DNA from: a virus
Lineage: Duplodnaviria > Caudoviricetes
Strand: one strand, 5' to 3'
IMG/VR virus record: IMGVR_UViG_3300011335_000510
Location: 1 to 30,608 of that record
DNA: 30,608 bases
This document shows positions 12,200-30,541 of the stretch, piece by piece. The position numbers and the translations under genes are program-made. The notes beneath the pieces were generated by a model that made no database searches, was not told the DNA's origin, and saw only the letters and a list, made by a program, of their open reading frames with translations. The stretch's first letter is position 1. The number at the start of each line of letters is the position of its first letter.

Positions 12200-12206
12200 T
12201 AATCAA

Positions 12207-12487: not shown

Positions 12488-12502
12488 AACCCCATAAATC
12501 AA

Positions 12503-12869: not shown

Positions 12870-12884
12870 AAATCAAAATAAACT

Positions 12885-13969: not shown

Positions 13970-13975
13970 ATAACT

Positions 13976-14021: not shown

Positions 14022-14060
14022 CAATTGACTGATATAACAAACAATTAAAAATAAAATAAA

Positions 14061-15269: not shown

Positions 15270-15280
15270 ACCTTAAAACT

Positions 15281-15469: not shown

Positions 15470-15480
15470 AACTAAAAATT

Positions 15481-15681
15481 ATGACAAAGAAACAAAGTAG
15501 TATTGATTGGTTAGTGGAGCAGTTAATACCAAATGCAATGAGAATGTTTGATGCAACAACTTGCAATGCTATTGAAAAAGCCAAAGCAATGCACAAGGAG
15601 GAGATAAGAGATGCTTGGAATAGTTTTGATGGTAAAACATTTGACAAATACCACAACGAAACATTTGGAGGGGAACAATGA
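15481..15681 (+). CDS. Hypothetical protein, 66 aa (KQSSIDWLVEQL...KAKAMHKEEI...HNETF)
   Basis: ATG at 15481 with A-rich leader preferred to the track start at 15415. Confidence 0.8.
   Translation: MTKKQSSIDWLVEQLIPNAMRMFDATTCNAIEKAKAMHKEEIRDAWNSFDGKTFDKYHNETFGGEQ
15653..15680 (+). repeat. 28-bp direct repeat, copy 1
   Basis: ACAACGAAACATTTGGAGGGGAACAATG; 27/28 identical to 16149-16176. Confidence 0.9.
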
Positions 15682-15947
15682 GTAAGCTATACACAGAAGA
15701 GCAATTAAGAGATGCTATTGCATTTGGTAATATAAGCAGACCAAATATAACTAATGATGATTGGATTAAACGACTAACCCCAATAGAACTACCAACGGAT
15801 GAGGATATATGGGATGAATCAGTAGAAATATACCCATATCCAAATCCAATTACTGTCGGTCTTGAGGTTGGCACTTCTATGAAAAGATCATATTTTACAG
15901 TCGGTGCTAAATGGATGAGAGATAAAATTAAAGGAGGGGACAAATGA
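15678..15947 (+). CDS. Hypothetical protein (89 aa)
   Basis: LYTEEQ...ELPTDEDI...GAKWMRDKI; ATGA coupling. Confidence 0.8.
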   Translation: MSKLYTEEQLRDAIAFGNISRPNITNDDWIKRLTPIELPTDEDIWDESVEIYPYPNPITVGLEVGTSMKRSYFTVGAKWMRDKIKGGDK

Positions 15948-16180
15948 AAACATTTCTTAAAAAACTATTATTTAGTAAGCCAAAATTAATGGTTAAACCA
16001 ATTTATATCAGTGTGTTTAAGGATAGCTACGGAAATTTATATGTTGGTGCGACTAACGGTGCTATTAATCCTGTTAAAAATGGTGTAAATGGTGTTGGTC
16101 ACATAGACACCCCTAAATACTTAGGTCAAATAAAAATTTACACGGACTACAACGAAACATTTGGAGGTGAACAATGCTAA
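15944..16180 (+). CDS. Hypothetical protein (78 aa)
   Basis: ATGA coupling; ends NETFGGEQC, like the 15481 ORF. Confidence 0.7.
   Translation: MKTFLKKLLFSKPKLMVKPIYISVFKDSYGNLYVGATNGAINPVKNGVNGVGHIDTPKYLGQIKIYTDYNETFGGEQC
16149..16176 (+). repeat. 28-bp direct repeat, copy 2
   Basis: ACAACGAAACATTTGGAGGTGAACAATG. Confidence 0.9.
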
Positions 16181-16605
16181 TACTACAACTCAAAAAAAGA
16201 ATCGAGATTCTCGAAGCGAAGGCGCAGGAACAGGAACAAAAAATAAACGAGATACTAAACAAGTTGTCCGAAAGAGCAACAACACCTTCTCTCGTTCCTG
16301 CAAAGAAACAAGCGTTCAAAAAACCAACTGTTGTTGAGATATACGACTACGCTTGTGAACGATTGAGCAACGAAGACGCGCTTAAGTTTACCGAGAAATT
16401 CCACGATCACTACGAAGCAAACGGGTGGAAGGTCGGACGCAATGCGATGAAAGACTGGAAGGCTGCTGTTCGTAAGTGGGACTTAACTACCTTTGATACA
16501 TCAAAAACAAACCAACAAAATCAAACTAAAATTAAGAATGGAAAATTCGACTCCGATGCTGCGCAACGCATCTATAACGACGCTCACAACTACACAAAGG
16601 ATTGA
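16174..16605 (+). CDS. Replication initiator/replisome-organizer C-terminal-like protein with N-terminal coiled coil
   Basis: FKKPTVVEI...FHDHYEANGWKVGRNAMKDWKAAVRKW motif. Confidence 0.7.
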   Translation: MLILQLKKRIEILEAKAQEQEQKINEILNKLSERATTPSLVPAKKQAFKKPTVVEIYDYACERLSNEDALKFTEKFHDHYEANGWKVGRNAMKDWKAAVRKWDLTTFDTSKTNQQNQTKIKNGKFDSDAAQRIYNDAHNYTKD

Positions 16606-17293
16606 TAAAGCCGAACGCGAAAGCGCGTTTGTTGCTGACTACGACCTGCCAACGTTCGTTAAACTTTGCTCGAAGGTGTGCGCTATGTATGGAATAGCAT
16701 TGCCAGAAGCGCAACTGTTGCAAATGTTGCACGAGTTTATTGTTAAGCACTTTCGTTGGGTGACGTTTGAACATTTCAATTTAGCGTTTGAAATGAATGC
16801 AGCTAACGAACTGTCAAAGAAATGCGAACACTTCGGAGCGTTGAGCGTGTCTTTTATAGGCGACGTTTTGACGGCTTACAAACCGCACCGCGACAAAATC
16901 AATTTACAAATACAAAGAGAAATAGCAGAAGCAATAGAGCAGAAAGCGAAAGAAATAAAGGAGAATGAAATGGCAGTAAACGACGACAGCTGGAGAAAGA
17001 TGCTCAAAGAAGACATTGAGAGTTTTAAGGAAGGTAAATTCATCACGTTAGAACTACGCGGAGTGTCAATGATGCGTTGGCTCGAAGAAGCGAAGTATAT
17101 CGACGCGACGACGTTCACGGATGACGAGTACAACACTTGCAAAGCAAAGGCGCGTTTCGTTGTCTTCCAAGAACAGCAACTTTCGAAAGGAATGGTTGAG
17201 CGAATGAGCGACCGCAAAAGACAACTATTAAAGGAATCGTTACACTTTGAAGGGATGCGTCAACTTTATAAACTTTATTTGTCGAAGCAATGA
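16538..17293 (+). CDS. Hypothetical replication protein (possible helicase loader)
   Basis: Follows the initiator-like gene; LAFE...HFGALS..FIGDVLTAY motif; ATG at 16538 preferred. Confidence 0.55.
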   Translation: MENSTPMLRNASITTLTTTQRIDKAERESAFVADYDLPTFVKLCSKVCAMYGIALPEAQLLQMLHEFIVKHFRWVTFEHFNLAFEMNAANELSKKCEHFGALSVSFIGDVLTAYKPHRDKINLQIQREIAEAIEQKAKEIKENEMAVNDDSWRKMLKEDIESFKEGKFITLELRGVSMMRWLEEAKYIDATTFTDDEYNTCKAKARFVVFQEQQLSKGMVERMSDRKRQLLKESLHFEGMRQLYKLYLSKQ

Positions 17294-17640
17294 GCAAATA
17301 CATTTACGATGAAAATGGTATCTGCGTGAATGGAGATACGATGTACTATAAAGCCGACGGAATTTTAGCGCATTATGAAGTAGCAAAGAACAAGCACGGA
17401 TATGCCAGAACGTACGAAGTAGAAGGATCAATTATAAGTATTTGCAGACCTATAAGTTGGGAAGAAGAAGATGTAACAGCAACAAAAGAAGAAGCGGTTG
17501 CATTGGCAAAATATGAATTGAAAAAAGCGTTAATGTCGGCTAACTACAACAATCAATTTGACGGTGTACTGATGGCAATGGGTGAGATTTCTATTCCGCA
17601 AAAAGAAACAATCAGCAAACCTCAACTAAGTTTATTTTGA
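17290..17640 (+). CDS. Hypothetical protein (116 aa) ending QLSLF
   Basis: ATGA coupling; C-terminal QLSLF. Confidence 0.8.
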   Translation: MSKYIYDENGICVNGDTMYYKADGILAHYEVAKNKHGYARTYEVEGSIISICRPISWEEEDVTATKEEAVALAKYELKKALMSANYNNQFDGVLMAMGEISIPQKETISKPQLSLF

Positions 17641-17858
17641 TGATTAAAACAAGAATTATTTCAGAAGAACATTCTGGAAACAAGACATACAAAGTACAAC
17701 GTAAAAAGTGGTATGGTTGGGTGACTGAATCTATTCCTATAATTGCATGGCGTTCTATTGATAAACATTTTCATACAATTGAAGAAGCGGAATTGTACAT
17801 ATTGAAACACTTTACCAAACCTAAAGTTAAAGTGGTGAAAAATCTAAATGTAACATAA
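17640..17858 (+). CDS. Hypothetical protein (72 aa)
   Basis: TGATG coupling; YKVQRKKWYGW motif. Confidence 0.75.
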   Translation: MIKTRIISEEHSGNKTYKVQRKKWYGWVTESIPIIAWRSIDKHFHTIEEAELYILKHFTKPKVKVVKNLNVT

Positions 17859-19153
17859 TGCCCGAAATAATTTACCACGATAAACAAAAACACGCGTTAG
17901 AACTTCTTTCGTACGAAAGTCCTATTTCGCAGGTGCTGTATGGCGGTGGTGTGTTTAGTGGAAAGTCTTTTCTTGGTTGCGACTGGCAGATAAAAAGAAG
18001 GTTGAAGTACCCGGGGACAAAGGGTTTAATCGGTCGTGCTGAATTGAAGAAGTTACGCTTGTCTACAATGCAAACCTTCTTTGAACTTTGCACCTTACAC
18101 GGATTAAAACCAAACGTTCACTACACCTACAACGGACAAGACCACGTTATTAAGTGGTATAACGGAAGCCAAACGATACTTATGGATTTGGCAGATATGC
18201 CGTCAGACCCCGACTTTCAGAGATTTGGGTCGATTGAAATCACAGACTACTTCGTTGACGAGGTAGCTGAAGTTTCGAAGCGTTGTATTGATATTTTGCA
18301 GTCGCGTGTACGTTACAAATTAATTAACGATAGACCGAAGGGTTTAATGACTTGTAATCCTTCAAAGGGTTGGTTATATAACGACTTTTATTTTGCTAAT
18401 CTTAAAGGACAATTAAGAAGTGACCGCGCCTTTGTACAAGCACTTCCAACGGATAACCCATATATCTCGCAGACTTATCTTGAGAACTTGCAGAAACTTC
18501 CAGAGTACGACCGCAAACGTCTGCTCGAAGGGAATTGGGAATTTGACGACGACAGCGACAAGTTGTTCTCAACCGACAACCTTCTTCGTATGTTCCGAAA
18601 TGAATTGATTGAAGGAAAGAAATATATCACAGCCGACATTGCGCGATTCGGAAAGGATAGAACAATTATCTGCGTTTGGAATGGGTTAACACTTATTGAA
18701 ATTGTAGAGATGAATAGAGCAGGAGTTGACGAAGTAGTGAACAGGATTCGTGAATTAGGCAAGAACTATTCAATTTTACTTCAAGACATTTTAGTCGATG
18801 AAGACGGTGTTGGTGGTGGAGTGGTTGACTTCTTGAAGTGTCGAGGGTTCGTCAACGGATCAAAACCCAAACAACCGCAATACCAAAATCTCAAAAGCGA
18901 GTGTTACTATAAACTCGCGCAATACGTTGAGGAAAACAAGATAACAATTCTTGTGAATGGAAAGAAGGAACAAATCGTGAAGGAGTTAGAAATGATTAAG
19001 CGACACCGCGCAGACGTGGAAGGCAAACTTATGGTTACACCTAAGGACGTAATCAAGAACCGCGAAGGAATTTCTCCAGACGTTGCTGACGCAATAATGA
19101 TGCGAATGTTTTTCGAACTAAATCCAAGTTATGGTCAGTATGTTGTAGGGTAA
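17858..19153 (+). CDS. terL: Terminase large subunit
   Basis: Walker A YGGGVFSGKS, Walker B YFVDE, TCNP motif, RNase H-like ITADIARFGKD...DVADA. Confidence 0.95.
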   Translation: MPEIIYHDKQKHALELLSYESPISQVLYGGGVFSGKSFLGCDWQIKRRLKYPGTKGLIGRAELKKLRLSTMQTFFELCTLHGLKPNVHYTYNGQDHVIKWYNGSQTILMDLADMPSDPDFQRFGSIEITDYFVDEVAEVSKRCIDILQSRVRYKLINDRPKGLMTCNPSKGWLYNDFYFANLKGQLRSDRAFVQALPTDNPYISQTYLENLQKLPEYDRKRLLEGNWEFDDDSDKLFSTDNLLRMFRNELIEGKKYITADIARFGKDRTIICVWNGLTLIEIVEMNRAGVDEVVNRIRELGKNYSILLQDILVDEDGVGGGVVDFLKCRGFVNGSKPKQPQYQNLKSECYYKLAQYVEENKITILVNGKKEQIVKELEMIKRHRADVEGKLMVTPKDVIKNREGISPDVADAIMMRMFFELNPSYGQYVVG

Positions 19154-19177
19154 AATAATTTAGCATATATTAGCAGA

Positions 19178-19432
19178 ATGGAAGAAGAAGAATACACTGA
19201 AGCGACAACTCAAATAGTTAGTCAATTACTAAAATACGATTATAAAGATGAAGACTTTGGAGAAGATTCTTTTTACGTTAAAGAGGACATTCAAAGTTTA
19301 ATACATTTATTTGCGTTAATTCATAACATAGTAGGTGAACGCACATCTCCTGAACAATGGGAAATGTTAGATAAAACAAGAGATACTTTGATTCAATATT
19401 TAGAAACATACCATTTAAACAAACAGGAATGA
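19178..19432 (+). CDS. Hypothetical acidic protein (84 aa)
   Basis: ORF in operon context; AT-rich. Confidence 0.7.
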   Translation: MEEEEYTEATTQIVSQLLKYDYKDEDFGEDSFYVKEDIQSLIHLFALIHNIVGERTSPEQWEMLDKTRDTLIQYLETYHLNKQE

Positions 19433-19641
19433 AACAAACACCACTATACGAATCGCTCAAAATGACTTACGAGCGCGAACGCGAAATAGTTAATTCAATC
19501 GCGACATACTTCCAACAAGCCAAGCCAGTAGGCGACATTCTCCTTGAACTTTCGCAGCGCAAGGATATGAACGCAAAGGAGAAGGTTTATCTTGCGTTAA
19601 TGATTGGCACAATGATGACACGAAACAATGAAGAGAAGTAA
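19429..19641 (+). CDS. Hypothetical protein (70 aa)
   Basis: ATGA coupling. Confidence 0.75.
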   Translation: MKQTPLYESLKMTYEREREIVNSIATYFQQAKPVGDILLELSQRKDMNAKEKVYLALMIGTMMTRNNEEK

Positions 19642-19831
19642 TTTACTCACGCAGGTTGTCGATGAATTAGAAGCGAGAGAATTGAAAGGTTTAGACACTT
19701 ACGGAACAACACTCGACCGAACTGATTTAACGCGCTCTGAGTGGCTACAACACGCTTACGAGGAAGCGTTAGACCTTGCATTATATTTGAAGAAACTTAA
19801 AATAGAAGAAGATGCCAGAGAGCAAAAGTAA
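19628..19831 (+). CDS. Small phage protein with all-alpha NTP-pyrophosphatase-like motif
   Basis: GLDTYGTTLDRTDL...WLQHAYEEALDLALYL (EExxD). Confidence 0.6.
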   Translation: MKRSNLLTQVVDELEARELKGLDTYGTTLDRTDLTRSEWLQHAYEEALDLALYLKKLKIEEDAREQK

Positions 19832-19997
19832 AAAAGGAATCTGCGTGTATTTACACAAAGATCTATGGAACGAGATTGACGAAAAGAGAGGTGAGAACAG
19901 CCGTAACACTTTTTTAAGTGAGGCAATAAAGTTCTCTTTGAAGTTCTACGTCGATGAATCTAAAGTAAAATACTCAGAACAAACGTCGACAAAATAG
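19812..19997 (+). CDS. Ribbon-helix-helix (Arc/CopG-like) regulator
   Basis: ICVYL strand, then KDLWNEIDEKRG and SRNTFLSEAI helices. Confidence 0.7.
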   Translation: MPESKSKKGICVYLHKDLWNEIDEKRGENSRNTFLSEAIKFSLKFYVDESKVKYSEQTSTK

Positions 19998-20535
19998 CGA
20001 CGGACGACGTAACGATTAAAGCGCTATTCCTGCGCTTTTTTTGTTTCTCTAACTTTTTCTTTTCAACATTGAGGCTGTTTATTTCTTCGCTCAATAGTTG
20101 TTCCTTTTCTTCGTGTGCGCTTATAACTTCTGTGAGGTTGTTTATCTTTTCCTCCTGTATGCCCATTTGCTGTTCATAAGTCGCTATTATAAGCGAATCT
20201 GAAGCAATAACGCTGTCGCAAGAGTTCACCAAACGGACAACATCAACAATAGTAATAGTATCTCGAACAATAATAGAATCACGAGTTCTTTGATAGGTGG
20301 TTTTGGCTTTAAGTTGAGCGTCTTCATAAGTTCGAAGTTGTTTATAAAGTTCTATTTGTTCTTGAAGAAGTCTGTCGTACTCACAAGCGTTGTAATTGAT
20401 AATGCTATCTTGTTTTTGTACTTCAACGTGTACATCTTTTATAGATTGTTTACCCCACCAATGCCAACACAATACTAACCAAATAAGCGACGTAAAAATA
20501 AATAAAAGTAAAGCTGCGAATAAATTCTTTCTCAT
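19960..20535 (-). CDS. Spanin-like coiled-coil membrane protein
   Basis: Hydrophobic N- and C-termini around a coiled coil; last gene of the lysis block. Confidence 0.55.
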   Translation of the reverse strand: MRKNLFAALLLFIFTSLIWLVLCWHWWGKQSIKDVHVEVQKQDSIINYNACEYDRLLQEQIELYKQLRTYEDAQLKAKTTYQRTRDSIIVRDTITIVDVVRLVNSCDSVIASDSLIIATYEQQMGIQEEKINNLTEVISAHEEKEQLLSEEINSLNVEKKKLEKQKKRRNSALIVTSSVAILSTFVLSILL

Positions 20536-21533
20536 AAGATTTGTCCTTCGTGTATGCGTAAATTCTTAACGCTAAAATGTCCGTTTGCACCCTTCTCAAC
20601 GATAGCAAAACCGTGATTATATTTTGAATAAGGGTTGTAGTCGGGACTTAATTCACTTAAGCAACCAACACCCCAACAAGTAATGAACTTTCCGTTAGCG
20701 TCCCTCTCGTTGTGTTCTGCTGTTTGGTGGTGGTGACCGCACAAAGAAGAAACTTTTGTCTTCAAGAACAAACCACGCGCTACGTTAACCGAAGGAAGGA
20801 ATTGTTTTCCGAACTCGTGTCCGTGAAAGATAGAAAGTTTACCGATATTCAGTTTACTCTTTCCGTCAATCCACGTTATATTGTGTTTGTCTAAATGACA
20901 CAAAGAAGCAAAGTCAAAAGCGTCAATGTCGAATAGTTCGGGCGCTTTAATTCGCATATATCTCCAATAGCGTTCTTCGTGGTTTCCTTCTTTGTAGTAG
21001 ATGTGAGCGTTTGGAAACTGACCGCGTAACGTATCTACAAATTGACGCATCGCGTATAACTCGTCCTTAAATTTTCTTTTGCGTGGATCTTTGACAAAGT
21101 CGCTAATCATGTGGCAATCTAACGCGTCGCCGTTCAAAATTACAGCGTCGCACCCTTGACGAATACCTTCATTAATTGCAACGGACAAAGCGTCGTTATC
21201 CTGGTAAGGGATATGAATATCTGAAAGAATCAAAAACTTCGTTCCTTTCAACTCGACGTGTTTTCTTTTCTTCGCGTACGACTTCGGGAGCGCGTAAGGG
21301 TTAGAAGGTCTTTGTTTAGTGTCTATCAATTCTTTTTGAGAGTTTGAAGTTCTACTATGTTTTCCAATTTTACCACGCACCGTTCGAACGTAATTTCGCG
21401 CATCTTCTTGCGAAGCAAATGCTTCTGGATATTCATTGAATAATTTTGAAGCTAAAGAGTGTGAAGGTGCTTCGGGGAATTTACTACAAATCTCCGCTGC
21501 TATCTTCCGCGCTTCTGTTTGTGGTCGTGCCAT
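20532..21533 (-). CDS. Calcineurin-like metallophosphoesterase
   Basis: SDIH, GDALD, GNHE, HGH, GHHH motifs in order. Confidence 0.9.
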   Translation of the reverse strand: MARPQTEARKIAAEICSKFPEAPSHSLASKLFNEYPEAFASQEDARNYVRTVRGKIGKHSRTSNSQKELIDTKQRPSNPYALPKSYAKKRKHVELKGTKFLILSDIHIPYQDNDALSVAINEGIRQGCDAVILNGDALDCHMISDFVKDPRKRKFKDELYAMRQFVDTLRGQFPNAHIYYKEGNHEERYWRYMRIKAPELFDIDAFDFASLCHLDKHNITWIDGKSKLNIGKLSIFHGHEFGKQFLPSVNVARGLFLKTKVSSLCGHHHQTAEHNERDANGKFITCWGVGCLSELSPDYNPYSKYNHGFAIVEKGANGHFSVKNLRIHEGQIL

Positions 21534-21747
21534 TCTTTTGTTTTGTAAATCGTTCGAGAACTGTTCCTGTAAACAAACCGCCTGTCAAAAGAGCGAGTGT
21601 GTCGAACATCGCAATGGGACAAACGTAATAGGTGAAAGTCGCAACGTAACTCAAAACGATTAAATTAATAATAACAAATATAGCGATTACTCGCTTACTT
21701 GAAACTTTTGAACATGAACTTAACAACGACTTCAACCATTCCTTCAT
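21484..21747 (-). CDS. Putative holin (2 TM)
   Basis: SSKR motif followed by two hydrophobic segments; in the lysis block. Confidence 0.65.
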   Translation of the reverse strand: MKEWLKSLLSSCSKVSSKRVIAIFVIINLIVLSYVATFTYYVCPIAMFDTLALLTGGLFTGTVLERFTKQKNGTTTNRSAEDSSGDL

Positions 21748-21992
21748 AAAAACTTCAAAATGAATTGAACGATTAACCCACCAACGACACCAGCAGCCGT
21801 TGCAATACCACCCAAACGAGCGACCTGCAACCTTTGATTCTGAATGTACTTATCGTGTTTTTGAACCTTGCTAACAAGACCTTCAATTTTCATCTCATCG
21901 TCACCAATAAGAACGTGATAGATGCGGTCTATCTTCTTATTCATATCTTGAAGTTCCTCGTGTATCAATGCTATTTCGTTTTCGGTGTTCAT
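21744..21992 (-). CDS. Small coiled-coil protein with C-terminal TM (holin/antiholin-like)
   Basis: Adjacent to the endolysin; C-terminal hydrophobic helix. Confidence 0.55.
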   Translation of the reverse strand: MNTENEIALIHEELQDMNKKIDRIYHVLIGDDEMKIEGLVSKVQKHDKYIQNQRLQVARLGGIATAAGVVGGLIVQFILKFL

Positions 21993-22432
21993 TTGAAGTA
22001 AAGTTGTATTTCAGCTTCTCTACGATTTACTAAACCTTTAAGCACAACACCACCGCCTTTATTCCACATACGGAACGAATCGGCAATCGTTGGGTCGTTA
22101 GGGTTCACATTTAATTTTCTTAATACGGACGACTTTTTGAAACCACCCACACCGATATTATAAGCAAGTGAAACACACGCGCTAAATTGATTCTCATTTA
22201 GTGGTTGTTTAATCAATGGACGAATTGAATTAGCAAATTGCTCAACGATAAATTTCGCTAATTCGTCAGCGCGTTGTTGTGTTATTACGTCGCCTTCTTT
22301 TACCTTCGTTTTGTCTTCGTAAAAAGTATTTCCATAGCCAATAGTCCACACTTTCGCAGGGCACAAATAAGCCTTCAAACGACAACCTTCGAAACGCTTC
22401 AATAGCGCGTAACCTTCCGCGTTAACTTTCAT
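21989..22432 (-). CDS. Endolysin, GH24 lysozyme
   Basis: FEGCRLKAYLCPAKVWTIGYG (E-x8-C-x5-T), AYNIG, GLVNRREAE. Confidence 0.95.
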   Translation of the reverse strand: MKVNAEGYALLKRFEGCRLKAYLCPAKVWTIGYGNTFYEDKTKVKEGDVITQQRADELAKFIVEQFANSIRPLIKQPLNENQFSACVSLAYNIGVGGFKKSSVLRKLNVNPNDPTIADSFRMWNKGGGVVLKGLVNRREAEIQLYFK

Positions 22433-22538
22433 TCACTAATCGCTTTATTTGTTTCTCTTTTTTCAAAAGGTAACGACGAAACTTTTCTTCGTACACCTTC
22501 TGCTTTACCATATCCTTTTTGCGCCCTGCTTTCGCCAT
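22422..22538 (-). CDS. Small basic peptide, 38 aa (MAKAGRKKDMVKQKVYEEKFRRYLLKKEKQIKRLVNES); not in ORF track
   Basis: A-rich leader; fills the gap and overlaps the endolysin start. Confidence 0.7.
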   Translation of the reverse strand: MAKAGRKKDMVKQKVYEEKFRRYLLKKEKQIKRLVNES

Positions 22539-22552
22539 TTGTTTTGTTTTAG

Positions 22553-23125
22553 TTATCTAATCCAACCAAGACCTTGACGACGATATGTGTACGAACGTCT
22601 ATCGCGTCCGTCGCTAATCTCGAAAGCGTTCGACGGATAAACATTTGTTTGTGACCATATCTGCTGTGTTTCGTTCGTCGTGTACTCTGGAAAGTCTGAC
22701 TGATTAAAACATAAAAAGTCGACCATTCTTTGAGTATAAAACATCGCTTTTGAACGCGATTGATCGCGGTAGTTTTGCAAGTCAGTTTGTGTTATCGGTG
22801 TAGTGTCTTCGCTTGTGCGAATAACAAGACTTCCGTTGTCGGTTTTAACGTACAAATGCGGTAACATTTCGTACAACGACCACCACATAATCATCCGACG
22901 CAAGTAAGTGTCTAAAAGTTCCTCGTATGCTCCTGCAATGTCACCATTTACAACGTCTTCTTTTATCTTGTTGTACAAGTCAGTTCCTAAATACAACTGA
23001 GCGTATTCGTCTTGTGCTAAATAGATAGCAGGGTACATCAAAAGAGGGTCAACGCTTCCGTTAATCCAACTATATTTCTTTATGTAGTTTTCGTCAATGA
23101 GTAGAACTTCGGGTTGTAGTGCCAT
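22553..23125 (-). CDS. Head-tail adaptor-like protein
   Basis: Follows the portal; AQD...LGTDLYNKI...FPEY motifs. Confidence 0.65.
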   Translation of the reverse strand: MALQPEVLLIDENYIKKYSWINGSVDPLLMYPAIYLAQDEYAQLYLGTDLYNKIKEDVVNGDIAGAYEELLDTYLRRMIMWWSLYEMLPHLYVKTDNGSLVIRTSEDTTPITQTDLQNYRDQSRSKAMFYTQRMVDFLCFNQSDFPEYTTNETQQIWSQTNVYPSNAFEISDGRDRRSYTYRRQGLGWIR

Positions 23126-23133
23126 TGTAGTTT

Positions 23134-25077
23134 TTATTTATATTTTAATGATGCTCTGTTTGGCATATCGTTAGGACGTACTGCTTCTTCTCCTTTTGGA
23201 AATAATTCGTTCGCTACTTTTCCTGTTACAACGGTGTCGTTCTTCAATCCATCGTTAGGTAAAAACTTTCCGTCTCTTCTTTTGCGGAAAAACACCTTTC
23301 TAAACCATGCGTGGCGACAATAAACACCGCCTTTATACGTCCAAATTGAGTAAGTGTTTTGTCCTGCAGGCGCGAATTGTCCGTTAACATCGGGGTTTTT
23401 ACCCATTTCAATAATGTCTTCGTAACGGAATAGCGCTCCTAGTTTAGAAAGCGCAACCATTTCTTGACAGAAATCACGCGTTACCATTTCGCCTTCTTTC
23501 CAAGTGTAGTTTCTTGAGTAGTAGTAACGAACTTTATAAAGTCCCGTGTCCTTTTCGTCTTTTTGGTCGGGATTGGAATAACCACGAACACTCATAAATT
23601 CAGAGCGGAACTTTTCTTCGTCATCTGGGTTGGTTACTTCTTCATCCGACAGCAACTGCCACTCTTCTTCGTTGATGTATTCCGCCTTTTCGCGCAAGTG
23701 AGCCAACCACGCGTCGCCTTCTTCTTTGCTTATCTTAACATCCGCAGACTTCGCCTTCTTCGCTACAACTTTTTTTTTTTGAGCGGACAATTTAGCCACC
23801 GCATCGCCGCCTGTTTGAAACATTGACTTCGCAACGTCCACATCTAAGCCCAAGAATTGAACTAAAAATACAATAGCTTGTTCTTGCGTCAATGTACCTG
23901 CGCTAACACTTGCAACGATTTCTAAAGCGGAAGCAATTTGCGCTCCGTTGTAAGTTACGTCTGAAACCTTTTCAGTTATCGCGTTAGGGTCAGTTGTTGC
24001 AGGTGTAGTTGTAACGTCAATAGGTGACGTAGAATCGATTATAATTGCTTCATCGAACACACTATTCATTTTTATTTCAACGTTGCCTAAAATCGGTGTA
24101 AAGACATCTTCGATTATACGTTGGTAAGGCTTCACAACTTGGTTGTTGAATATCTCCATACCAACAAGCATCTCGTCTTTGTTCGAACCGAAGCCGTTAG
24201 ATTCTCTAATTCCGTGAATCAAAGGTGACACAACGCGGTGTCCAACCATAATCTGCTTCGCTGTTTCTTCGCTTAAAAACTGATATTGTTTGTCAGCATC
24301 CGAAAGAGGGAACGCTTGAATGTCCGGTGTTCTTGTTGGATCTTCGTTGAAAGTCATTAAGAACTTACCTGCGTTACTTGCACCGCTCAATCTTTCTTCC
24401 CACTCACGACGAATAGCTTCACGTTCTTCTTTCTGCGGTATGCCGTTTAAGAAGTTAATGATGAACGAAGGGAAAAGACCATTCAAGATATTATTAACGT
24501 GATACATTCCCATTTGATGAGAAAGTTCAATATAATTCAACGCACCAAAGTAGTCGGGTTTAGGATAGTAAGAACTTCCTGCCATCATTCCGTGCGCGTA
24601 AATCACTTGGCGCGGTTGTTCTTGCGCTTGTGAAGGATTAAACGCAGGAATGAACTCTGGCTTTCCTTTCTTGCTTCGTGAGTTTTTCCAGTCGCGAGAA
24701 TACCAAATGCCGGTTATTTCTTCTTCTTCTTTGTCGTAAGCAAGACGACAATTTTCGAAAGGCAAGTGGTTAATCTTTACAACGCGAGTGAAGTCCATTG
24801 ACCAAATAACTTCAGCAACAAACGCACCTTGTAGTTTTAAATCGAAAGAAATACCTTGCAAAGCACTATCGAGAATCGTTCCCGTACCTTGTCCTTCAAT
24901 CATAAACGCGATTGAGTTTGTCAATGCGTTGTGAATTGGTGAGTTGTAGTACAGATTTATCAAATATTGGCTGTAAAGATTGTCATTTCCGTAATCAATC
25001 CAACCGCCACGATTTTCTTTTTCAATCGCCTCTGTTGGTATGTATCGGCTTAACGCTATTTGTTGAATGTTGCTCAT
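23134..25077 (-). CDS. Portal protein with C-terminal minor-head-like domain (647 aa)
   Basis: YGNDNLY, SPIHNA, NGLFPS, GASNAGKF, HRVVSPL...GFGSN motifs; C-terminal RDFC...KGGVYCRHAW. Confidence 0.88.
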   Translation of the reverse strand: MSNIQQIALSRYIPTEAIEKENRGGWIDYGNDNLYSQYLINLYYNSPIHNALTNSIAFMIEGQGTGTILDSALQGISFDLKLQGAFVAEVIWSMDFTRVVKINHLPFENCRLAYDKEEEEITGIWYSRDWKNSRSKKGKPEFIPAFNPSQAQEQPRQVIYAHGMMAGSSYYPKPDYFGALNYIELSHQMGMYHVNNILNGLFPSFIINFLNGIPQKEEREAIRREWEERLSGASNAGKFLMTFNEDPTRTPDIQAFPLSDADKQYQFLSEETAKQIMVGHRVVSPLIHGIRESNGFGSNKDEMLVGMEIFNNQVVKPYQRIIEDVFTPILGNVEIKMNSVFDEAIIIDSTSPIDVTTTPATTDPNAITEKVSDVTYNGAQIASALEIVASVSAGTLTQEQAIVFLVQFLGLDVDVAKSMFQTGGDAVAKLSAQKKKVVAKKAKSADVKISKEEGDAWLAHLREKAEYINEEEWQLLSDEEVTNPDDEEKFRSEFMSVRGYSNPDQKDEKDTGLYKVRYYYSRNYTWKEGEMVTRDFCQEMVALSKLGALFRYEDIIEMGKNPDVNGQFAPAGQNTYSIWTYKGGVYCRHAWFRKVFFRKRRDGKFLPNDGLKNDTVVTGKVANELFPKGEEAVRPNDMPNRASLKYK

Positions 25078-25460
25078 TATGCGCCTGTATATATTACATC
25101 GACAGGAATTGTCGGTGTTGAAACGTCAAAGTAAATTGTTCCGTTTGATAGTATCATTGAACCACGTTCAACGAGACCTACAACGGACTCATCTGTTGGA
25201 TCTAAATTGCTGTTGCTGTTTTGTCCGTACACGTCGTACTTGTATTTACCAGCGTCAGTTAGACCAACTGTTGTTAAACGAATCTTTGTGACACGTTCGT
25301 TTTCGTTTATTACGGTAACGACTTGTGCGAGTTGTTCGCCTGTCATTTCGTACGTTAAAACAAGAAGGTAATTTGTGAATGCAACGTTGAAGTATTGGCG
25401 ACCTTCATCGAGTGAAAGCCACGCATCTTGATTCGCAGTATTTGTATTCAAATAAACCAT
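25077..25460 (-). CDS. Structural protein (127 aa), possible head closure
   Basis: GKYKYDVY.Q...NLDP...VERG motif; between major tail and portal. Confidence 0.55.
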   Translation of the reverse strand: MVYLNTNTANQDAWLSLDEGRQYFNVAFTNYLLVLTYEMTGEQLAQVVTVINENERVTKIRLTTVGLTDAGKYKYDVYGQNSNSNLDPTDESVVGLVERGSMILSNGTIYFDVSTPTIPVDVIYTGA

Positions 25461-25490
25461 TCTAACTTTTATTTGTTCGTTGAAATTACA

Positions 25491-25521
25491 GCACAGAGGG
25501 ACGCTTTGCCCCTCTATGTGT
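25491..25521 (-). promoter_or_regulatory. Hairpin downstream of the major tail gene
   Basis: CACAUAGAGGG...CCCUCUGUG on the minus strand; weak U tract. Confidence 0.55.
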
Positions 25522-25531
25522 AAAAGTTTTT

Positions 25532-26038
25532 TTAGTCAAGGATTGACAAAGGCGCACCGCTCAATTTGTACGCTCTCTTTGGAGTTTCGTGAACGAATGC
25601 CAAAGTATATCCGTTGGCGTCACCCAAAGTAGCTCCAGTCGCTGCTGTTGCAGTAGAAAGGTCTGCTCCGTACTCGTAACCAACAGCCCACCAATTGTCG
25701 TTTGAATCATTAACGAAAATCATTGGACGAGCCTGTGCAAGTGTTTGCAATTCCAAACGCTTTGCGCTTGATAATTTCTGCAACATTACATTCACAGTCT
25801 GCGTGTAAAATACTGTTCCGTTGTCGCGGTTGAAGTTAATTGTTTCTTCGAACGATCCTGTTTGCGTTGGTAATTCGTAAGTGTACAAATCACCTGCAAC
25901 TGGGCCAACGATTGTAGTAACGATTTCGTTTGCGTCCAAAGTCAACGAAGTAACTGTATCGCAAAGAATGATTTTCTTAATGCCACCGATGCCGTCTTTG
26001 CAATCGAGAGTAAATCCTGTACTTAATTCACAAGCCAT
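25532..26038 (-). CDS. Major tail (tube) protein
   Basis: MAC...G...CKDGIGGIK, NGTVFYTQ, GDANGYTL motifs; directly after the capsid gene. Confidence 0.8.
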   Translation of the reverse strand: MACELSTGFTLDCKDGIGGIKKIILCDTVTSLTLDANEIVTTIVGPVAGDLYTYELPTQTGSFEETINFNRDNGTVFYTQTVNVMLQKLSSAKRLELQTLAQARPMIFVNDSNDNWWAVGYEYGADLSTATAATGATLGDANGYTLAFVHETPKRAYKLSGAPLSILD

Positions 26039-26056
26039 ATTATTAATTTTTTATTA

Positions 26057-26100
26057 GCACAAAAGAGGGGTGGTTTTTATGCCACCACCTCTCTATGTGC
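26057..26100 (-). promoter_or_regulatory. Long hairpin downstream of the major capsid gene
   Basis: GCACAUAGAGAGGUGGUGG...CCACCCCUCUUUUGUGC. Confidence 0.6.
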
Positions 26101-26120
26101 AAGGGTTAGAATGGTTGAGA

Positions 26121-27023
26121 TTATGCAGTATATTGGTAGAACGCGATTTCGTCACCGAATCCGTACTGAACACCTGCAAAGAAAGAAGCTGCGAAACGAA
26201 CGTTGTCAGACAAATCTTTGTCGTACATATCCAAAACAGCTACGCTATTCCATTGGTCTAACAAGTTAGTACCGAACCAAAGGTTGCTCTTTTGGAACAT
26301 AGCCATTGTGTCGTCAGACATACCAGGACATTCGATAATGTCGTATTGTCCCTGCCAAGTCATTTTCACAGTTTCTCCTTGATAAAGGTAGCTTCCGCCA
26401 CCAAGACCTAAAATTGCAGTTCTAAACGCTTCAGCAACATTAGAAGATACAGCGATAACAGGCTTCTCAGTAGCACGACGAACTCGTGTTGGTAAAGTCA
26501 AAACTAAACGAGCCATTTCTTCGATTACGTTAGCAGAAGTGATAGCTTCTGGAGTAGCAACGTCAAGAACAGCAGCGTCAGCTAAGAACAAAGTTTCAAA
26601 ACCTGCGTACTCACCTGCAGTTGCGTTAACACCTTGCCACATAACAACCTCGTTGTTAGCTGCAATTCCTGCCATAACGTTAGCAATAATAGCGTCCGTT
26701 AATGAAGCGTGAAGGTTTCCGTCTTGTTCTTCTTTTGCAGACCAATCCGATAAAAACGTGTTTTTGCACAATTGTCTGTGAACTTGGAATTTTTCCAAAG
26801 TCAAGATGCGCTCAGTTAAAGTAACTGTTCCTGTTGGAGTGAAGTCGCAAGTTGCGTTTGCGAAAGTGATGTTGTCAACTAAACGACGAACAACTTGTTT
26901 GTACTCGATGTTTTCTTTAAAAGTAACTGCTGCAAGAGACTCGTTACTCAAGAACGCAGCGCGGATGTATCCTGCTGCTTCACGACCTGCATAGGTAGTG
27001 GTTAATGAAGTGGTAGTAGCCAT
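26121..27023 (-). CDS. Major capsid protein
   Basis: TTYAG, TCDFTPTGTVTLTERIL...QLCK, SNLWFGTNLL...VRF...GVQYG; follows the scaffold gene. Confidence 0.88.
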   Translation of the reverse strand: MATTTSLTTTYAGREAAGYIRAAFLSNESLAAVTFKENIEYKQVVRRLVDNITFANATCDFTPTGTVTLTERILTLEKFQVHRQLCKNTFLSDWSAKEEQDGNLHASLTDAIIANVMAGIAANNEVVMWQGVNATAGEYAGFETLFLADAAVLDVATPEAITSANVIEEMARLVLTLPTRVRRATEKPVIAVSSNVAEAFRTAILGLGGGSYLYQGETVKMTWQGQYDIIECPGMSDDTMAMFQKSNLWFGTNLLDQWNSVAVLDMYDKDLSDNVRFAASFFAGVQYGFGDEIAFYQYTA

Positions 27024-27041
27024 TTTTTATTTGTGTTTTTT

Positions 27042-27602
27042 TTATTTGTTTAAGTGAAATACGAAACGTTCTTCTGCCGACATTCTGTTGTATGGCTTAG
27101 AAGGTGCGCTTTGTTTGTTTTGTTTAACTTCTTTGATTGATTGAACCGCAGGTTGTGCGCTCAACTTTTCAACGTTTGAAGAAAGTTCTGCGTTTGCCTT
27201 CTTAATGTCAGCAAGTTCGCTTTCCAACTTAGCAACCAAAGACAAAAGACCTTCAACTTCTGCGTTGAATGTTTCTTCTTTAGCTTGTTCTGTTTCTTCA
27301 ACAGTTATTTCAACCGATGGTTCTTCTTCCATTGGTCTTAATTCGGTTACAACACCGTCAGCAACAACAACTGTAACTGCTTCTGCTGTCTTGTACTCTC
27401 CGTCCATAACAACAACCTCGTTGCCGTCTACGTCTTTAGTGAATACACGAACACCAACAGCCCACGCGTCGCTATCTGAATAGATGCTTGTACCGTCCTC
27501 AAGAATCGCTTCAACCATTTGCTTCACCTCAACAACTTCTTCAGCTGAAAGGGAAACATTGTGCTTTGCGAAAAGAGCGTTTACTTTTTCTCGTAAGTTC
27601 AT
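27042..27602 (-). CDS. Capsid scaffolding protein
   Basis: Acidic protein with DGEY..V.V.DG motif and C-terminal coiled coil; ATG at 27602 preferred, in-frame ATG at 27659 possible. Confidence 0.75.
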   Translation of the reverse strand: MNLREKVNALFAKHNVSLSAEEVVEVKQMVEAILEDGTSIYSDSDAWAVGVRVFTKDVDGNEVVVMDGEYKTAEAVTVVVADGVVTELRPMEEEPSVEITVEETEQAKEETFNAEVEGLLSLVAKLESELADIKKANAELSSNVEKLSAQPAVQSIKEVKQNKQSAPSKPYNRMSAEERFVFHLNK

Positions 27603-27645
27603 ATAAGTGTTTATTAAATATTTAGTTCCTAAATAGAAAAGAGTG

Positions 27646-27653
27646 TAGATTTG
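27646..27653 (+). promoter_or_regulatory. Bacteroidota -7 element TAGATTTG, antisense to the late arm
   Basis: Identical octamer to the early promoter; no canonical -33 element. Confidence 0.55.
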
Positions 27654-27656
27654 TTT

Positions 27657-27730
27657 CATAATTGATTCTTTTCATAGTTTCTTTTTGATTTTAAGGTTTG
27701 AACGGGGGAGTAGTTACCCCCGTTTTTTTT
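27657..27730 (+). ncRNA. Candidate small RNA B (about 73 nt), antisense to the late arm
   Basis: Bounded by -7 element and terminator; contains UUUUCAUAGUUU. Confidence 0.55.
27701..27730 (+). terminator. Intrinsic terminator oriented opposite to the flanking genes
   Basis: AACGGGGG/CCCCCGTT stem with T8 at 27723-27730. Confidence 0.8.
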
Positions 27731-27905
27731 ACCCTAAAGTTTCAAGAATAGTATTCAGAACTTTCATTTCGTCTTCATTCAATCCGTACGTCTTAAACCC
27801 CATTGCGCCCTGCTCTTTTGTTATTTTAGTAAGAGCTAAAAGAAACAGGTTTGCGTCGTCGTTGAACAATTCGACTTTTAGAAACCCCCCTGCTTCGATG
27901 TTCAT
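27729..27905 (-). CDS. Hypothetical protein, 58 aa (MNIEAGGFLKVELFNDDANLFLLAL...); not in ORF track
   Basis: ATG immediately after the protease stop; open to TAA at 27729. Confidence 0.75.
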   Translation of the reverse strand: MNIEAGGFLKVELFNDDANLFLLALTKITKEQGAMGFKTYGLNEDEMKVLNTILETLG

Positions 27906-28496
27906 TTAGTTCTCTTTCAAAAGTTCGTTTAACTCTTCAAGAATGGCAGCAAATTCTTCGTGAGAGTGCATATACATTTCTTTCTCAGCAATAAAGTTGC
28001 CTTCGATTGAGAAACCTAACACTTCTTTGTTTTGAATCTGTTGCTTTACTTCTTCGTTTTCTACTTTCATGCAACCGAACCACGTTCCTTCTGGAAGTGA
28101 AAACCCGAAGTTCTTACTCTTGTCGTTCTCGCCTTCGATAATCCACGTCTCAACTAACGAAACACCGTCGACAACTTTCGCGTGTTCAACTGTTGCGTTG
28201 TTTTGGTTGGCTTGTTTCAAATAATTATAAGCGATAGCGCGAATCGTTTCTTTTGAATACTTAACGTAGTATTCCTCGTCCGTCTTTTCGTCGCGTCTAT
28301 AAATGAGTTGGTCGGGAATAAGCAAAGCGCCGTATAAAAGACCTCTAAAATCTTCTTTGAACTTCACGCTGTGTTGTTCGCTTAACGCGACAAAATCGAC
28401 ACCTATTGCAGGTTGTTCTACTACGCTAATAGCATAAACACCAAGTGTTCCTTCGTCGTCAATACCGTACTCAATTACTTTAATTTTTTTATTCAT
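27906..28496 (-). CDS. XkdF-like prohead serine protease
   Basis: AISVVEQPAI, GALLIPD..IYR, TVEH, VETW, GTW, GFSIEG motifs. Confidence 0.85.
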   Translation of the reverse strand: MNKKIKVIEYGIDDEGTLGVYAISVVEQPAIGVDFVALSEQHSVKFKEDFRGLLYGALLIPDQLIYRRDEKTDEEYYVKYSKETIRAIAYNYLKQANQNNATVEHAKVVDGVSLVETWIIEGENDKSKNFGFSLPEGTWFGCMKVENEEVKQQIQNKEVLGFSIEGNFIAEKEMYMHSHEEFAAILEELNELLKEN

Positions 28497-28507
28497 TGTT
28501 TTATTTT

Positions 28508-30322
28508 TTAGCCGCCTAAGCGAGATTGATTTTGAATGAGTTGTTGCGCTTCTAAATTGCTCGACACTTGACCGCTTACAACGTATGCTTGTAGTGGCGG
28601 TTGTTGGTTTGGTTGAATACCCAAGTAGGCAAAGTTCGACGCGGCAGGTGCTGTCATTCCACCTCCTGCACTTGGTACGCTTCCGCTACCACCACTTGCA
28701 CCACTCGTGCCACCTGTTCCTTGAAATTGTTGTTTGCTTATAACTGCTACGCGCGCAAGACCTTGAGCAATTGCTATTCCTGCTGCTACTGCTGCGCGAA
28801 CAGGTGCGTCGGGTGTTGTGATAGCCATTTGCGAACGATACGCTCCTTGTGCTGCTAAATATGTATCTATGGTAGCAGTTGCTATACTCACACCTTTTTG
28901 TATCTGAAACGCTTTTCTTTGTTGCGCTTCGCTCTCTCCTGCAAACGCTCCTGCTAAATCGCTAATAATAGATAATGAAGTTGTAACCGCATCTACTCGA
29001 AGTTGCGCTCTTTGTTCTTCTGCTTTTTGCTCCGCTTCAAGTTGTTTTTGTGAATTACTCGCTTTTAATGCTGTTAGCTGATAATGAGCTTCCATTTCAG
29101 CAGTTATCTTATCTTTTCCTTTCGCCTTATATAAACCTTTTTCAATTCTTTGCATTCGCTCATCTTCAGCCATCATTTCGTCGTTTAATTTTTTACGACG
29201 TTCTAACTCTTTTTGGTCTGCATCTTTTTGCGCTTGTTCTTTGTCGTCTTGTGCTTTTTTATCTGCCGCTTTTTTATCGTCTGCTGCTTTCTTGTCCATT
29301 GCCTTAATAGACAACTGCAAACCTGCATAATCGTTCTCCATTGTAGTAATGGCATCTTTATTCTCTTGAATCGTTTTGTTCAATTCAGTTTCCAACTCCT
29401 GCGGATCAATCAATAATCCTGCTGCCAAATTGGTAAAGCCTTCGGCAAGGTTGCTATCAGCACCAACTAATTTAGCTATTTCGTCAACAGCCGTTAGAAG
29501 TAATTGAAGCGGAGCAGTTAAAAAGCGAATAATACCCTCAAGTATTTCTCTATTTCTTTTCGCGGTTTGAACTTGCGTTATAGCTTGTTTTTCGGTAATA
29601 GCTAACTGTGCTTTTCTATCAGCTATTGCCGTTTCTAAAGCCTTCAGTTTTATATTTAAAATCTCTTTTTCACTTTTTCCTTGTAGCTTTAATATGTTGG
29701 TTTGCTTGTCGATATTTTCGTACGCTTTCTGCGATGCGTCCGCCTTTTGTTTTGAAATAGCAAGACTTTCTCTTTCTTGTTCGTTAATGCCACTTAATCC
29801 ACTTTCAACGGAAGGAAACAATTTTATTAATTCGTCGAAGTTGGCAACGACTAAAGCGACAGCACCTGCAAGTAATAAGATAGGGTTAGAAATAATTGCT
29901 TTTGCCAACGACGCAAATCCACTAACTAAACCGCCTATCTCATTTTTTAACGTCTTAAAATCAATTTTGGAAACGTTTGTTCCCATATTTTTCAACGCTT
30001 GACCTGCTCCTGCTAAATCCAAATCCATTAAGCGAGAACCGAACAAACCTACGTTATTCGAAAGACCTTCAAACGCGTTACCTGCGTTGGCACTAATCTC
30101 TGCGGAAAGGTCGCTTATGTTATCCTTTAACTCGGCAGCACGAGCGGAAGCCTTTTTAAATTCTTCGCTCGACCTGTCCATTTGTTGCAACTGGTTCTGC
30201 AACGCACGGAGTTCAGCCTTTGCGCTCTTAAATCCTGTTGCCGTATTTTCGGCTGCCGTAGCGGTTTCGCCAAGTACACGCGTTGCGTTTGTGCCTACAT
30301 TAAAATCTATCGTGTTTGCCAT
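28508..30322 (-). CDS. Tape measure protein (604 aa)
   Basis: Ala-rich helical protein with hydrophobic NPILLL segment, charged coiled coil and LQAYVVS...V...Q end. Confidence 0.85.
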   Translation of the reverse strand: MANTIDFNVGTNATRVLGETATAAENTATGFKSAKAELRALQNQLQQMDRSSEEFKKASARAAELKDNISDLSAEISANAGNAFEGLSNNVGLFGSRLMDLDLAGAGQALKNMGTNVSKIDFKTLKNEIGGLVSGFASLAKAIISNPILLLAGAVALVVANFDELIKLFPSVESGLSGINEQERESLAISKQKADASQKAYENIDKQTNILKLQGKSEKEILNIKLKALETAIADRKAQLAITEKQAITQVQTAKRNREILEGIIRFLTAPLQLLLTAVDEIAKLVGADSNLAEGFTNLAAGLLIDPQELETELNKTIQENKDAITTMENDYAGLQLSIKAMDKKAADDKKAADKKAQDDKEQAQKDADQKELERRKKLNDEMMAEDERMQRIEKGLYKAKGKDKITAEMEAHYQLTALKASNSQKQLEAEQKAEEQRAQLRVDAVTTSLSIISDLAGAFAGESEAQQRKAFQIQKGVSIATATIDTYLAAQGAYRSQMAITTPDAPVRAAVAAGIAIAQGLARVAVISKQQFQGTGGTSGASGGSGSVPSAGGGMTAPAASNFAYLGIQPNQQPPLQAYVVSGQVSSNLEAQQLIQNQSRLGG

Positions 30323-30541
30323 TTAGAAGAAGATTGTATATAAGATAAATATCCAGAACGCGACGTTTACCGAAATACGCGTTACTTTCCACAACCAATA
30401 CTTAAACATTGATAGCTTACGCTTTCCGTTAGCTATTTTTCCGCTCTCGCCTTCCGTCTTGATGTTCAACTTAATGAACTCCAAACAAGCGATCATTGAG
30501 TGCGCTTTATTTTGAAGATGTACCTTTGAAGTCTGCTCCAT
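30323..30541 (-). CDS. Small protein with C-terminal TM (72 aa)
   Basis: Abuts the tape measure start; on the circle it overlaps the end of the 26..2665 gene by 35 nt. Confidence 0.65.
   Translation of the reverse strand: MEQTSKVHLQNKAHSMIACLEFIKLNIKTEGESGKIANGKRKLSMFKYWLWKVTRISVNVAFWIFILYTIFF

Follow-up and report, generated by a model that had tools for sequence, protein, structure and literature searches.

A candidate cis-antisense RNA gene opposite the scaffold leader of an uncultured freshwater phage

The IMG/VR virus record IMGVR_UViG_3300011335_000510, a complete record of 30,608 bases with direct terminal repeats, was analyzed over its full length, and this whole stretch is referred to below as the window. 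Within its head operon, between a small open reading frame (ORF) of 58 amino acids (aa) and a scaffold-like gene, a short unit was found on the plus strand in which a Bacteroidota-type promoter box is followed by a U-rich stretch and an intrinsic terminator. We propose, with moderate confidence, that a cis-antisense RNA gene, of the same kind as sar, sas and OOP, occupies the plus strand at positions 27658-27730 and that its product would mask the upstream translation starts of the scaffold gene. A first-pass annotation of this DNA had already placed here a promoter and a terminator antisense to the scaffold/capsid leader, on the strand opposite to the neighboring genes. The genes on either side are both on the minus strand, and comparison with related phages shows that the unit, as a box with a terminator, is strongly conserved across two lineages.

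Relatives were gathered by searching viral contigs with the scaffold protein, which gave 176 relatives in a first search and 207 in a second (the best 80 were fetched each time), and by scanning viral contigs with a 19-nucleotide (nt) box motif, which returned 120 loci. The phage group is very abundant in freshwater, with more than 3,000 capsid relatives scored and ~220 viral contig stretches estimated to carry the box motif. Alignment A1 was built from 122 loci with at least 150 nt upstream; these comprised 91 distinct sequences, which together with the window form the 92 rows of lineage 1. Among the 120 box-motif loci, 95 had a GGG...CCC hairpin followed by a T run, 3 belonged to a new lineage, 3 were truncated and 19 were unrelated. 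Lineage 2 is represented by 11 loci that include the region (9 distinct sequences) and is 80% identical to the window in the capsid, 64-65% in the protease, 52-60% in the scaffold and 43-49% in the 58-aa ORF, the last being 79-100% identical in lineage 1.

The -7 box of the unit was found to be followed by TTTC, then by A27658 as the predicted start and then by a U-rich stretch that runs to 27700. As the first-pass annotation had it, the octamer at 27646-27653 is identical to the -7 box at 11621-11628, which belongs to the rightward early promoter of the phage (TTTG-N22-TAGATTTG, 11595-11628, plus strand). In the parts of two studies that treat Flavobacterium promoters, the -7 box is placed at -12 to -5 in F. 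psychrophilum (PMC9723704), and T-12, A-11, T-8, T-7, T-6 and G-5 are given as near-invariant in F. johnsoniae, with AT-rich motifs whose midpoints fall at -18 and -28 (PMC6847099); the box and purine of the unit fit this published geometry. In lineage 1 the box read TAnATTTG in 92/92 rows, with one n varying (TATATTTG in 58, TAGATTTG in 17, TACATTTG in 13 and TAAATTTG in 4), and GTAnATTTGTTTC was invariant apart from that one n in all 92 distinct rows. The nine lineage-2 rows all matched TAnnTTTG (TATATTTG, TAGATTTG, TACATTTG, TAGTTTTG and TAATTTTG), with both n positions varying through TAGTTTTG and TAATTTTG. The predicted +1 position was a purine throughout, being A in 50 and G in 42 of the lineage-1 rows and A in 9/9 lineage-2 rows, and in all nine of the latter the box and the +1 A stood at the same kept distance from ATG 27602 of the scaffold gene.

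The remainder of the unit had been described as ~45 nt of U-rich sequence leading into a terminator with an 8-bp stem and T8. Hairpin and T tract were present as described at 27701-27730, and the single-stranded sequence quoted for the RNA was also correct. On the plus strand the element is an intrinsic terminator by definition, namely, a GC-rich stem-loop directly before a U run. When a strict terminator was defined as a perfect stem of at least 6 pairs with at least 4 GC pairs and a T run of at least 6, the window contained two, that of the unit and one at 20018-20038, at the end of the plus-strand gene block; 100 mononucleotide shuffles contained on average 0.01 strict terminators, and 0 of them had box plus terminator. 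The terminator of the unit is beyond chance. Its stem was paired in 627/627 cells, and 4/7 pairs were changed on both sides, a level that 0/500 shuffles reached (slid controls were 59-69% paired); the stem variants CGGGGG, CGAGGGG, CGGAGGG and CGGTGGG all occurred with matching partners. RNAalifold, applied to 66 distinct RNAs, returned the terminator hairpin only (9 pairs, 4 with double changes) and left columns 1-46 unpaired, and the plus-strand RNA of the window folded at -20.7 kcal/mol (z = -2.86), which 1/200 shuffles equaled. The T tract had 7 T in 20 of the lineage-1 rows, 8 in 55, 9 in 16 and 10 in 1, so that, from start to T-tract end, the predicted RNA measured 71-75 nt in the 92 rows; in lineage 2 it measured 76-86 nt. 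The lineage-2 hairpin, AAAGGTGCTAAACGTAGCACCTTT, is unrelated to that of the window, and the RNA body is different too, while the A run beside the stop codon of the small ORF and a plus-oriented terminator are kept, in the same place and orientation. Since on the gene strand an A run precedes the hairpin and TTCAAACC comes after it, the hairpin should terminate plus-strand transcripts only. The parts of the unit and its neighbors are collected in Table 1.

Table 1. Positions of the putative antisense unit and of the adjoining head genes in the window.
Feature	Positions	Strand	Remarks
Predicted antisense RNA	27658..27730	+	~73 nt; no ATG on plus strand of unit
-33-like element TTTA	27621..27624	+	21 nt upstream of -7 box; weak
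AT-rich block ATAGAAAA	27633..27640	+	-25 to -18 from predicted start; ATA[G/T]AAAA near-invariant in A1; AAATAGAA in lineage 2
-7 box TAGATTTG	27646..27653	+	Bacteroidota sigma-A consensus TAnnTTTG, -12 to -5; read directly
Predicted transcription start	27658	+	A, 4 nt past box; inferred from published spacing
Single-stranded body	27658..27700	+	43 nt, exact complement of scaffold leader; conserved blocks UUUUCAU and UUUGAUUUU(A)AGGUUUG (A1/A3)
CAU opposite minus-strand ATG 27675	27673..27675	+	79/92 lineage-1 rows
Terminator hairpin	27701..27724	+	stem AACGGGGG (27701-27708), 8-nt loop, CCCCCGTT (27717-27724); 8-bp stem, 6 GC pairs
T8 tract	27723..27730	+	complement contains TAA stop of 58-aa ORF
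ATG 27675	27622..27675	-	behind canonical start region CAAACCTTAAAATCAAAAAGAAACT; 17-codon out-of-frame ORF in window; sequence read
Scaffold-like gene	27042..27659	-	long frame, 205 aa from ATG 27659; inner ATG 27602 invariant (27042-27602)
58-aa ORF	27729..27905	-	upstream neighbor of antisense unit; weak DUF6934 match only, E = 0.0015
Head maturation protease, XkdF type	27906..28496	-	Peptidase_S78_2, E = 5.2e-16; phrog_24921, E = 8.7e-44
Capsid-like gene	26121-27023	-	phrog_11320

On the gene strand, codon-periodic conservation of the scaffold started at ATG 27602: the entropy by codon position was 0.52/0.45/0.59, without periodicity, in the 57 nt upstream of this ATG versus 0.12/0.05/0.64 downstream. 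An in-frame upstream start, either 57 nt (ATG or GTG) or 72 nt (ATG) away, was present in 92/92 lineage-1 rows (89 with ATG) and in 9/9 lineage-2 rows, and the upstream frame was open in 64/64 rows, the other two frames being open in 10/64 and 1/64. The length of the 57-nt stretch was fixed, with 1-nt indels compensated within 10 nt, whereas the leader from the hairpin to the upstream start varied by 8-10 nt in lineage 2. That lineage also kept the ATG equivalent to 27659 and its 57-nt distance to the inner ATG, together with the box and the +1 A. The other upstream start, ATG 27675, shares the scaffold frame in those relatives whose spacer is 18 nt long and is missing in 13/92 rows. Translation probably starts upstream, in the window at 27659. 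Our reading is that the extra 19 residues may matter little as protein and that their DNA doubles as the antisense promoter.

The same features could be accounted for by the gene strand only, with no plus-strand RNA at all: a structured leader would carry a canonical start and an N-terminally extended scaffold, the hairpin would be an element of mRNA processing or stability, and the match to the promoter box would be a by-product. The in-frame starts and open frame found throughout both lineages, the fixed 57-nt length next to a leader of variable length and the canonical start motif are all consistent with this reading, as is the overall frequency of TAnnTTTG, which alone was not enriched in the window (41 occurrences versus 35.5 +/- 6.0 after shuffling; 19/100 shuffles reached 41). 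We nonetheless hold it to be unlikely, if worth serious attention. An A run of 7-10 nt abuts the stem and no U run follows it on the gene strand, which fits a terminator of the other strand, and lineage 2 has a different hairpin in the same orientation. Moreover, the box falls on codons 2-5 of the long scaffold frame (Lys-Gln-Ile-Tyr), whose Lys, Gln and Tyr wobble bases were unchanged in 101 distinct sequences, versus an invariant wobble in 3/18 conserved two-fold codons of the undoubted coding part. Changes in the box were confined to the two n positions and gave Ile, Met or Asn, and relatives with ACG in place of ATG 27659 retained the same 13 nt. Since both n vary in lineage 2, with the Ile at codon 4 becoming Asn and the box being kept, its conservation points to a promoter constraint at the nucleotide level and not to coding alone. 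A gene-strand A/U helix enclosing the box was considered and rejected as unconvincing: the core AAAA/UUUU was always paired, the flanking pairs were mixed and no clear covariation was seen.

Alternatively, the RNA may act mainly in trans, in the manner of the FopS small RNAs (sRNAs), its U-rich body with the CAU blocking the AAACCU..AAAAUCAA..AUGAAAA starts of host or early phage mRNAs; we regard this as rather improbable. The precedent is a real one, for, as described in the part of PMC11697453 devoted to them, the FopS sRNAs of B. thetaiotaomicron are 65-70 nt long, are driven from canonical sigma-A promoters and pair with the start region of susC, whose translation is thereby blocked, and a FopS sequence was noted in a phage by the same authors. 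The Rfam model of this family (RF04319 BTncRNA_FopS; cut-off, 56 bits) gave a full-length, plus-strand match to the unit with 21 bits (E = 0.011 for the genome), which was its only match in the genome at an E value of 10 or less, and it gave 24 bits in a lineage-1 relative (L234) and 31.9 bits in a lineage-2 relative (L250). The blocks aligned to the model, UUUUCAU.GU and GAU.UUAAGGUU, coincided with the conserved blocks of the unit. The scores in the window, L234 and L250 (21-32 bits) were nevertheless far under the gathering cut-off of 56 bits, the models of two unrelated families, the L20 leader and AniS, scored similarly at the same stretch, and a scan of the window with Rfam found no family at its cut-off. 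The single-stranded part of the FopS consensus is the reverse complement of an AAACCT..AAAATCAA..ATGAAAA start region; because the consensus itself has this form, a FopS likeness is expected from the cis geometry, and the sequence resemblance does not show membership.

The first-pass annotation had noted that the reverse complement of the single-stranded part looks like a Bacteroidota translation start. This proved to be so: the gene strand forms a canonical start region, all relatives have upstream starts in frame, and the resemblance is automatic in that case. A pattern derived from the unit (TTTTCAT, 6-12 nt, TTGATTTT, 0-2 nt, AGGTTT) gave ~310 matches in species genomes, of which 120 were fetched (L383-L502); 46 of the first 80 listed were Bacteroidota by their record titles, Flavobacterium genomes included. 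A real ORF began at the opposite-strand ATG in 81/120 fetched loci, 61/81 of these ORFs having a signal-peptide-like N terminus, while a hairpin with T run lay downstream in 1 of the 120 loci, a box upstream in 6 and both in 0. Judged from these matches, start regions of the form AAACCT(0-2 nt)AAAATCAA(6-12 nt)ATGAAAA are common in Bacteroidota, and the scaffold gene strand is one example. Neither ATGAAAA nor TAAAATCAAA was enriched in the window; several early genes of the phage share the AAACCT..AAAATCAA..ATGAAAA motif. For this reason, matches to the unit at early-gene starts were to be expected, and those at 12869-12887 and 15268-15283 to which the first pass had drawn attention do exist, but their duplex energies were no better than those of shuffled RNAs. 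The prediction that went with them, a trans action on specific phage start codons, was not borne out. When 50 phage start regions were scored, the best duplex had -20.2 kcal/mol versus -18.5 +/- 2.2 for dinucleotide shuffles, of which 22% did as well (13% for the mean of the top 5), so that no specific phage start emerges as a target. Averaged over all 50 starts, the duplex energy was matched by only 1.5% of shuffles, an excess that any reverse complement of a start region would be expected to show. The start region of the ORF at 12885 showed no covariation with the variable segment of the unit in the genomes of 4 relatives. Finally, the promoter-(U)nCAU-terminator arrangement was found in relatives in part: the box and terminator were conserved, but the CAU was missing from 13/92 lineage-1 rows (TAT in 2, absent in 11) and from 6/9 lineage-2 rows; the UUUUCAU block, which resembles a seed, was present in 79/92 lineage-1 rows. 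It is more doubtful still that a FopS-like phage RNA also pairs with the AAACCU..AAAAUCAA..AUGAAAA leaders of host mRNAs for secreted or outer-membrane proteins (SusC-like transporters, possibly phage receptors) and stops their translation, although such start regions are common in Bacteroidota.

It is very improbable that the terminator only keeps plus-strand transcripts begun further upstream from running antisense through the head genes, with the box close by being irrelevant, since, even though leakage past the terminator at 20018-20038 would run antisense across these genes and intergenic gaps are the only possible terminator sites, this would leave unexplained an invariant box and purine that two lineages keep 43-60 nt upstream of the hairpin, and the other three gaps of the block have no plus-oriented strict terminator.

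Several points weigh against a cis-antisense RNA gene at this place. In Bacteroidota, the -33 element of sigma-A promoters is TTTG, ~19-21 nt upstream of the -7 box. The corresponding element of the unit is weak, reading TTTA in the window and in 55 of the lineage-1 rows (TTTG in 36 and TTTC in 1) and TTCA in lineage 2, although the F. johnsoniae study, in the part that deals with promoter motifs, calls the -33 motif "much less evident" (PMC6847099). In the same part, the box is refined to TAHHTTTG, with G almost never at -10 (PMC6847099), and the box of the window has a G at -10, as found in 17/92 rows, the other 75/92 having none; the early promoter at 11621 has the same G, so the host may tolerate it. 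TAnnTTTG as such occurs in the window at the frequency of chance, and the conservation of the box, which lies within codons 2-5 of an open frame, may partly serve the gene strand. The predicted RNA would not cover ATG 27602, where conservation at the amino acid level begins, and masking would not be direct there if this is the main start. The unit was absent from all of the more distant relatives examined (capsid 31-39% identical), in which the protease and scaffold are mostly fused or another small ORF lies between them; in one relative with a 45% identical capsid (P0123, L503), the contig ends just upstream of the scaffold gene. Lastly, relatives were found in 20 sequencing runs, of which 1 was recorded as RNA and 2 were guessed to be RNA; all were in the form of contigs. 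In four of them (X18, X19, X20 and X3), pieces of relatives, mostly 85-95% alike, covered the region, but the RNA-library contigs show neither strand nor ends; the antisense RNA is a predicted one.

If the unit is nevertheless a cis-antisense RNA gene, the host RNA polymerase with its main sigma factor would transcribe it, as for the early promoters of the phage, and transcription, from a promoter within the opening codons of the long scaffold frame, would head for the protease gene and stop at the terminator that adjoins the stop codon of the 58-aa ORF, giving an RNA of ~73 nt. This RNA would be perfectly paired to the head mRNA where protease and scaffold meet, between the stop of the 58-aa ORF and the AU of AUG 27659; AUG 27675 and its start region would be covered, and the inner AUG 27602 would not. 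The duplex would bar ribosomes from the upstream starts and probably make a substrate for RNase III. The outcome may be that synthesis of the scaffold (and capsid) is delayed or tuned or that initiation is shifted to the inner AUG 27602; we infer repression, delay, cleavage or an isoform switch from the layout of the region.

The promoter of sar in phage P22 faces its target gene. As described in the portion of PMC12197685 on phage antisense RNAs, sar (68/69 nt) has its complement in the intercistronic leader and start region of ant, the downstream gene, and represses translation initiation by pairing; sas of P22 (105 nt) switches translation between two in-frame sieB products; and OOP of phage lambda (77 nt) leads by pairing to RNase III-dependent decay of its target mRNA. 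Like sar, the unit is a small, noncoding RNA unit within an operon and on its opposite strand; as read from the sequence, it spans ATG 27675 and extends to the AU of ATG 27659. Unlike sar, which controls the antirepressor of a temperate enterobacterial phage, it would act on a head scaffold gene of a Bacteroidota phage, from a sigma-A(Bfr)-type promoter and with no Shine-Dalgarno sequence to mask, and its RNA is a sequence-based prediction. The likeness to sas (PMC12197685, same portion) lies in an upstream and an inner in-frame start with an antisense RNA over the upstream one only; the two scaffold isoforms, however, are only predicted, and the stretch between the starts is not conserved at the amino acid level. 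As with OOP (PMC12197685, same portion), the RNA would be short, terminator ended and made from a constitutive-type promoter, but OOP overlaps the 3' end of cII, whereas the unit overlaps a leader, for which a role of RNase III may be supposed. The FopS family of Bacteroides has 14 members, 4 of them antisense RNAs, that block translation at start codons, and like FopS and GibS (RF04319), the unit is predicted to have ~70 nt, a canonical sigma-A promoter, a single-stranded 5' UUUUCAU part and a terminator hairpin (PMC11697453, section on the family). According to that section, FopS sRNAs are trans acting, have susC-type mRNAs of gut Bacteroidaceae as their targets and bind RbpB, in contrast to a unit that is single copy, cis encoded opposite a perfect target and part of a freshwater phage, with a CAU that is not universal and scores of 21-32 versus 56 bits.

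The genes of the window are arranged in three blocks (minus strand, 26-11558; plus strand, 11664-19997; minus strand, 19960-30541). Along the direction of transcription, the head genes follow the order coiled-coil protein of 604 aa, XkdF-type protease, 58-aa ORF, a 126-nt gap that holds the unit, scaffold-like gene, capsid-like gene, two small genes and portal. The closest deposited phages were Nonlabens (Persicivirga) phages P12024L and P12024S, of a marine flavobacterium, with a capsid 29% identical to that of the window. Because the nearest deposited phages infect a flavobacterium and because of the promoter type, a Bacteroidota host is likely. A search for near-identity among deposited phages gave no match, nor did a capsid query against species genomes for a prophage or host. 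In Nonlabens phage P12024L, gp01 (L133, 179-1228) is a single gene of 349 aa that combines a protease (41% identical to that of 27906-28496) with a scaffold (28% over ~108 residues, E = 1e-4). The protease/scaffold gene (27042-28496, minus strand) is fused in most of the distant relatives and split in the lineage of the window, where the two parts are separated by the 58-aa ORF and the antisense unit. Another split lineage (L175-L178, L183, L187, L189) has a Cys-rich ORF of ~50 aa in the gap and no antisense terminator, and in two close relatives (L188, 1157-1490, and L190, 1274-1607) the protease gene and the 58-aa ORF stand ~335 bases farther apart.

Other elements were noted in the window. 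Hairpins lie on the gene strand after the capsid-like gene (26069-26086, minus strand) and after the next gene (25492-25518, minus strand); TTTTGTG comes after the former, which may act as a partial terminator and so delimit a transcript of scaffold and capsid. Inside a minus-strand block, at 8599-8643 (plus strand), stands a second hairpin of plus orientation (AGAGGTGG...CCACCTCT, 12-nt loop; T7), with TTTTCAT directly before it. It was rejected as a second unit: no TAnnTTTG lies upstream, and in the genomes of 5 relatives, the flanking coding parts matched in 2/5 and the gap never did. The early region between the blocks (11559-11663) is divergent, with TTTG-N22-TAGATTTG on the plus strand and TATCTTTG on the minus strand, and a box TACATTTG at 12852-12859, 26 nt before ATG 12885, may give that gene its own promoter and a short leader. 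An ORF of 167 aa (10648-11151, minus strand) matched phrog_1740 (RNA polymerase sigma factor; E = 6.3e-9) and no Pfam family; if the match is real, the late promoters may not be of the host type. A repeated late promoter was looked for and rejected: the 17-mer after the hairpin had no second copy at 3 or fewer mismatches, GAAACAAATNTAC and TGAAACAAA occurred at chance frequency, and the sigma-like ORF rests on one PHROG match. Perfect, operator-like palindromes were seen in the intergenic gaps 7717-7771 and 10039-10226 (both minus strand), namely, TTGTCACAAAT...ATTGTGACA and GTCAAACGT...ACGTTTGAC, the latter adjoining a minus-strand TATATTTG box.

Antisense sRNAs that time or tune phage genes are textbook matter in enterobacterial phages, and an antisense regulator of the sort proposed here is of a known kind in phages. 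To our knowledge, however, such sRNAs are almost undescribed in Bacteroidota phages, where promoters and translation starts follow different rules. If pairing with host leaders, improbable as it seems, were true, it would mean host takeover or superinfection exclusion by start-codon occlusion. If the cis-antisense RNA gene itself exists, it would reveal by what means a phage adjusts scaffold and capsid output once the protease-scaffold gene has been split, and it would be a natural case of start-region masking, with a logic as in the FopS sRNAs of Bacteroides, in what is, as far as we know, a phylum without Shine-Dalgarno sequences.

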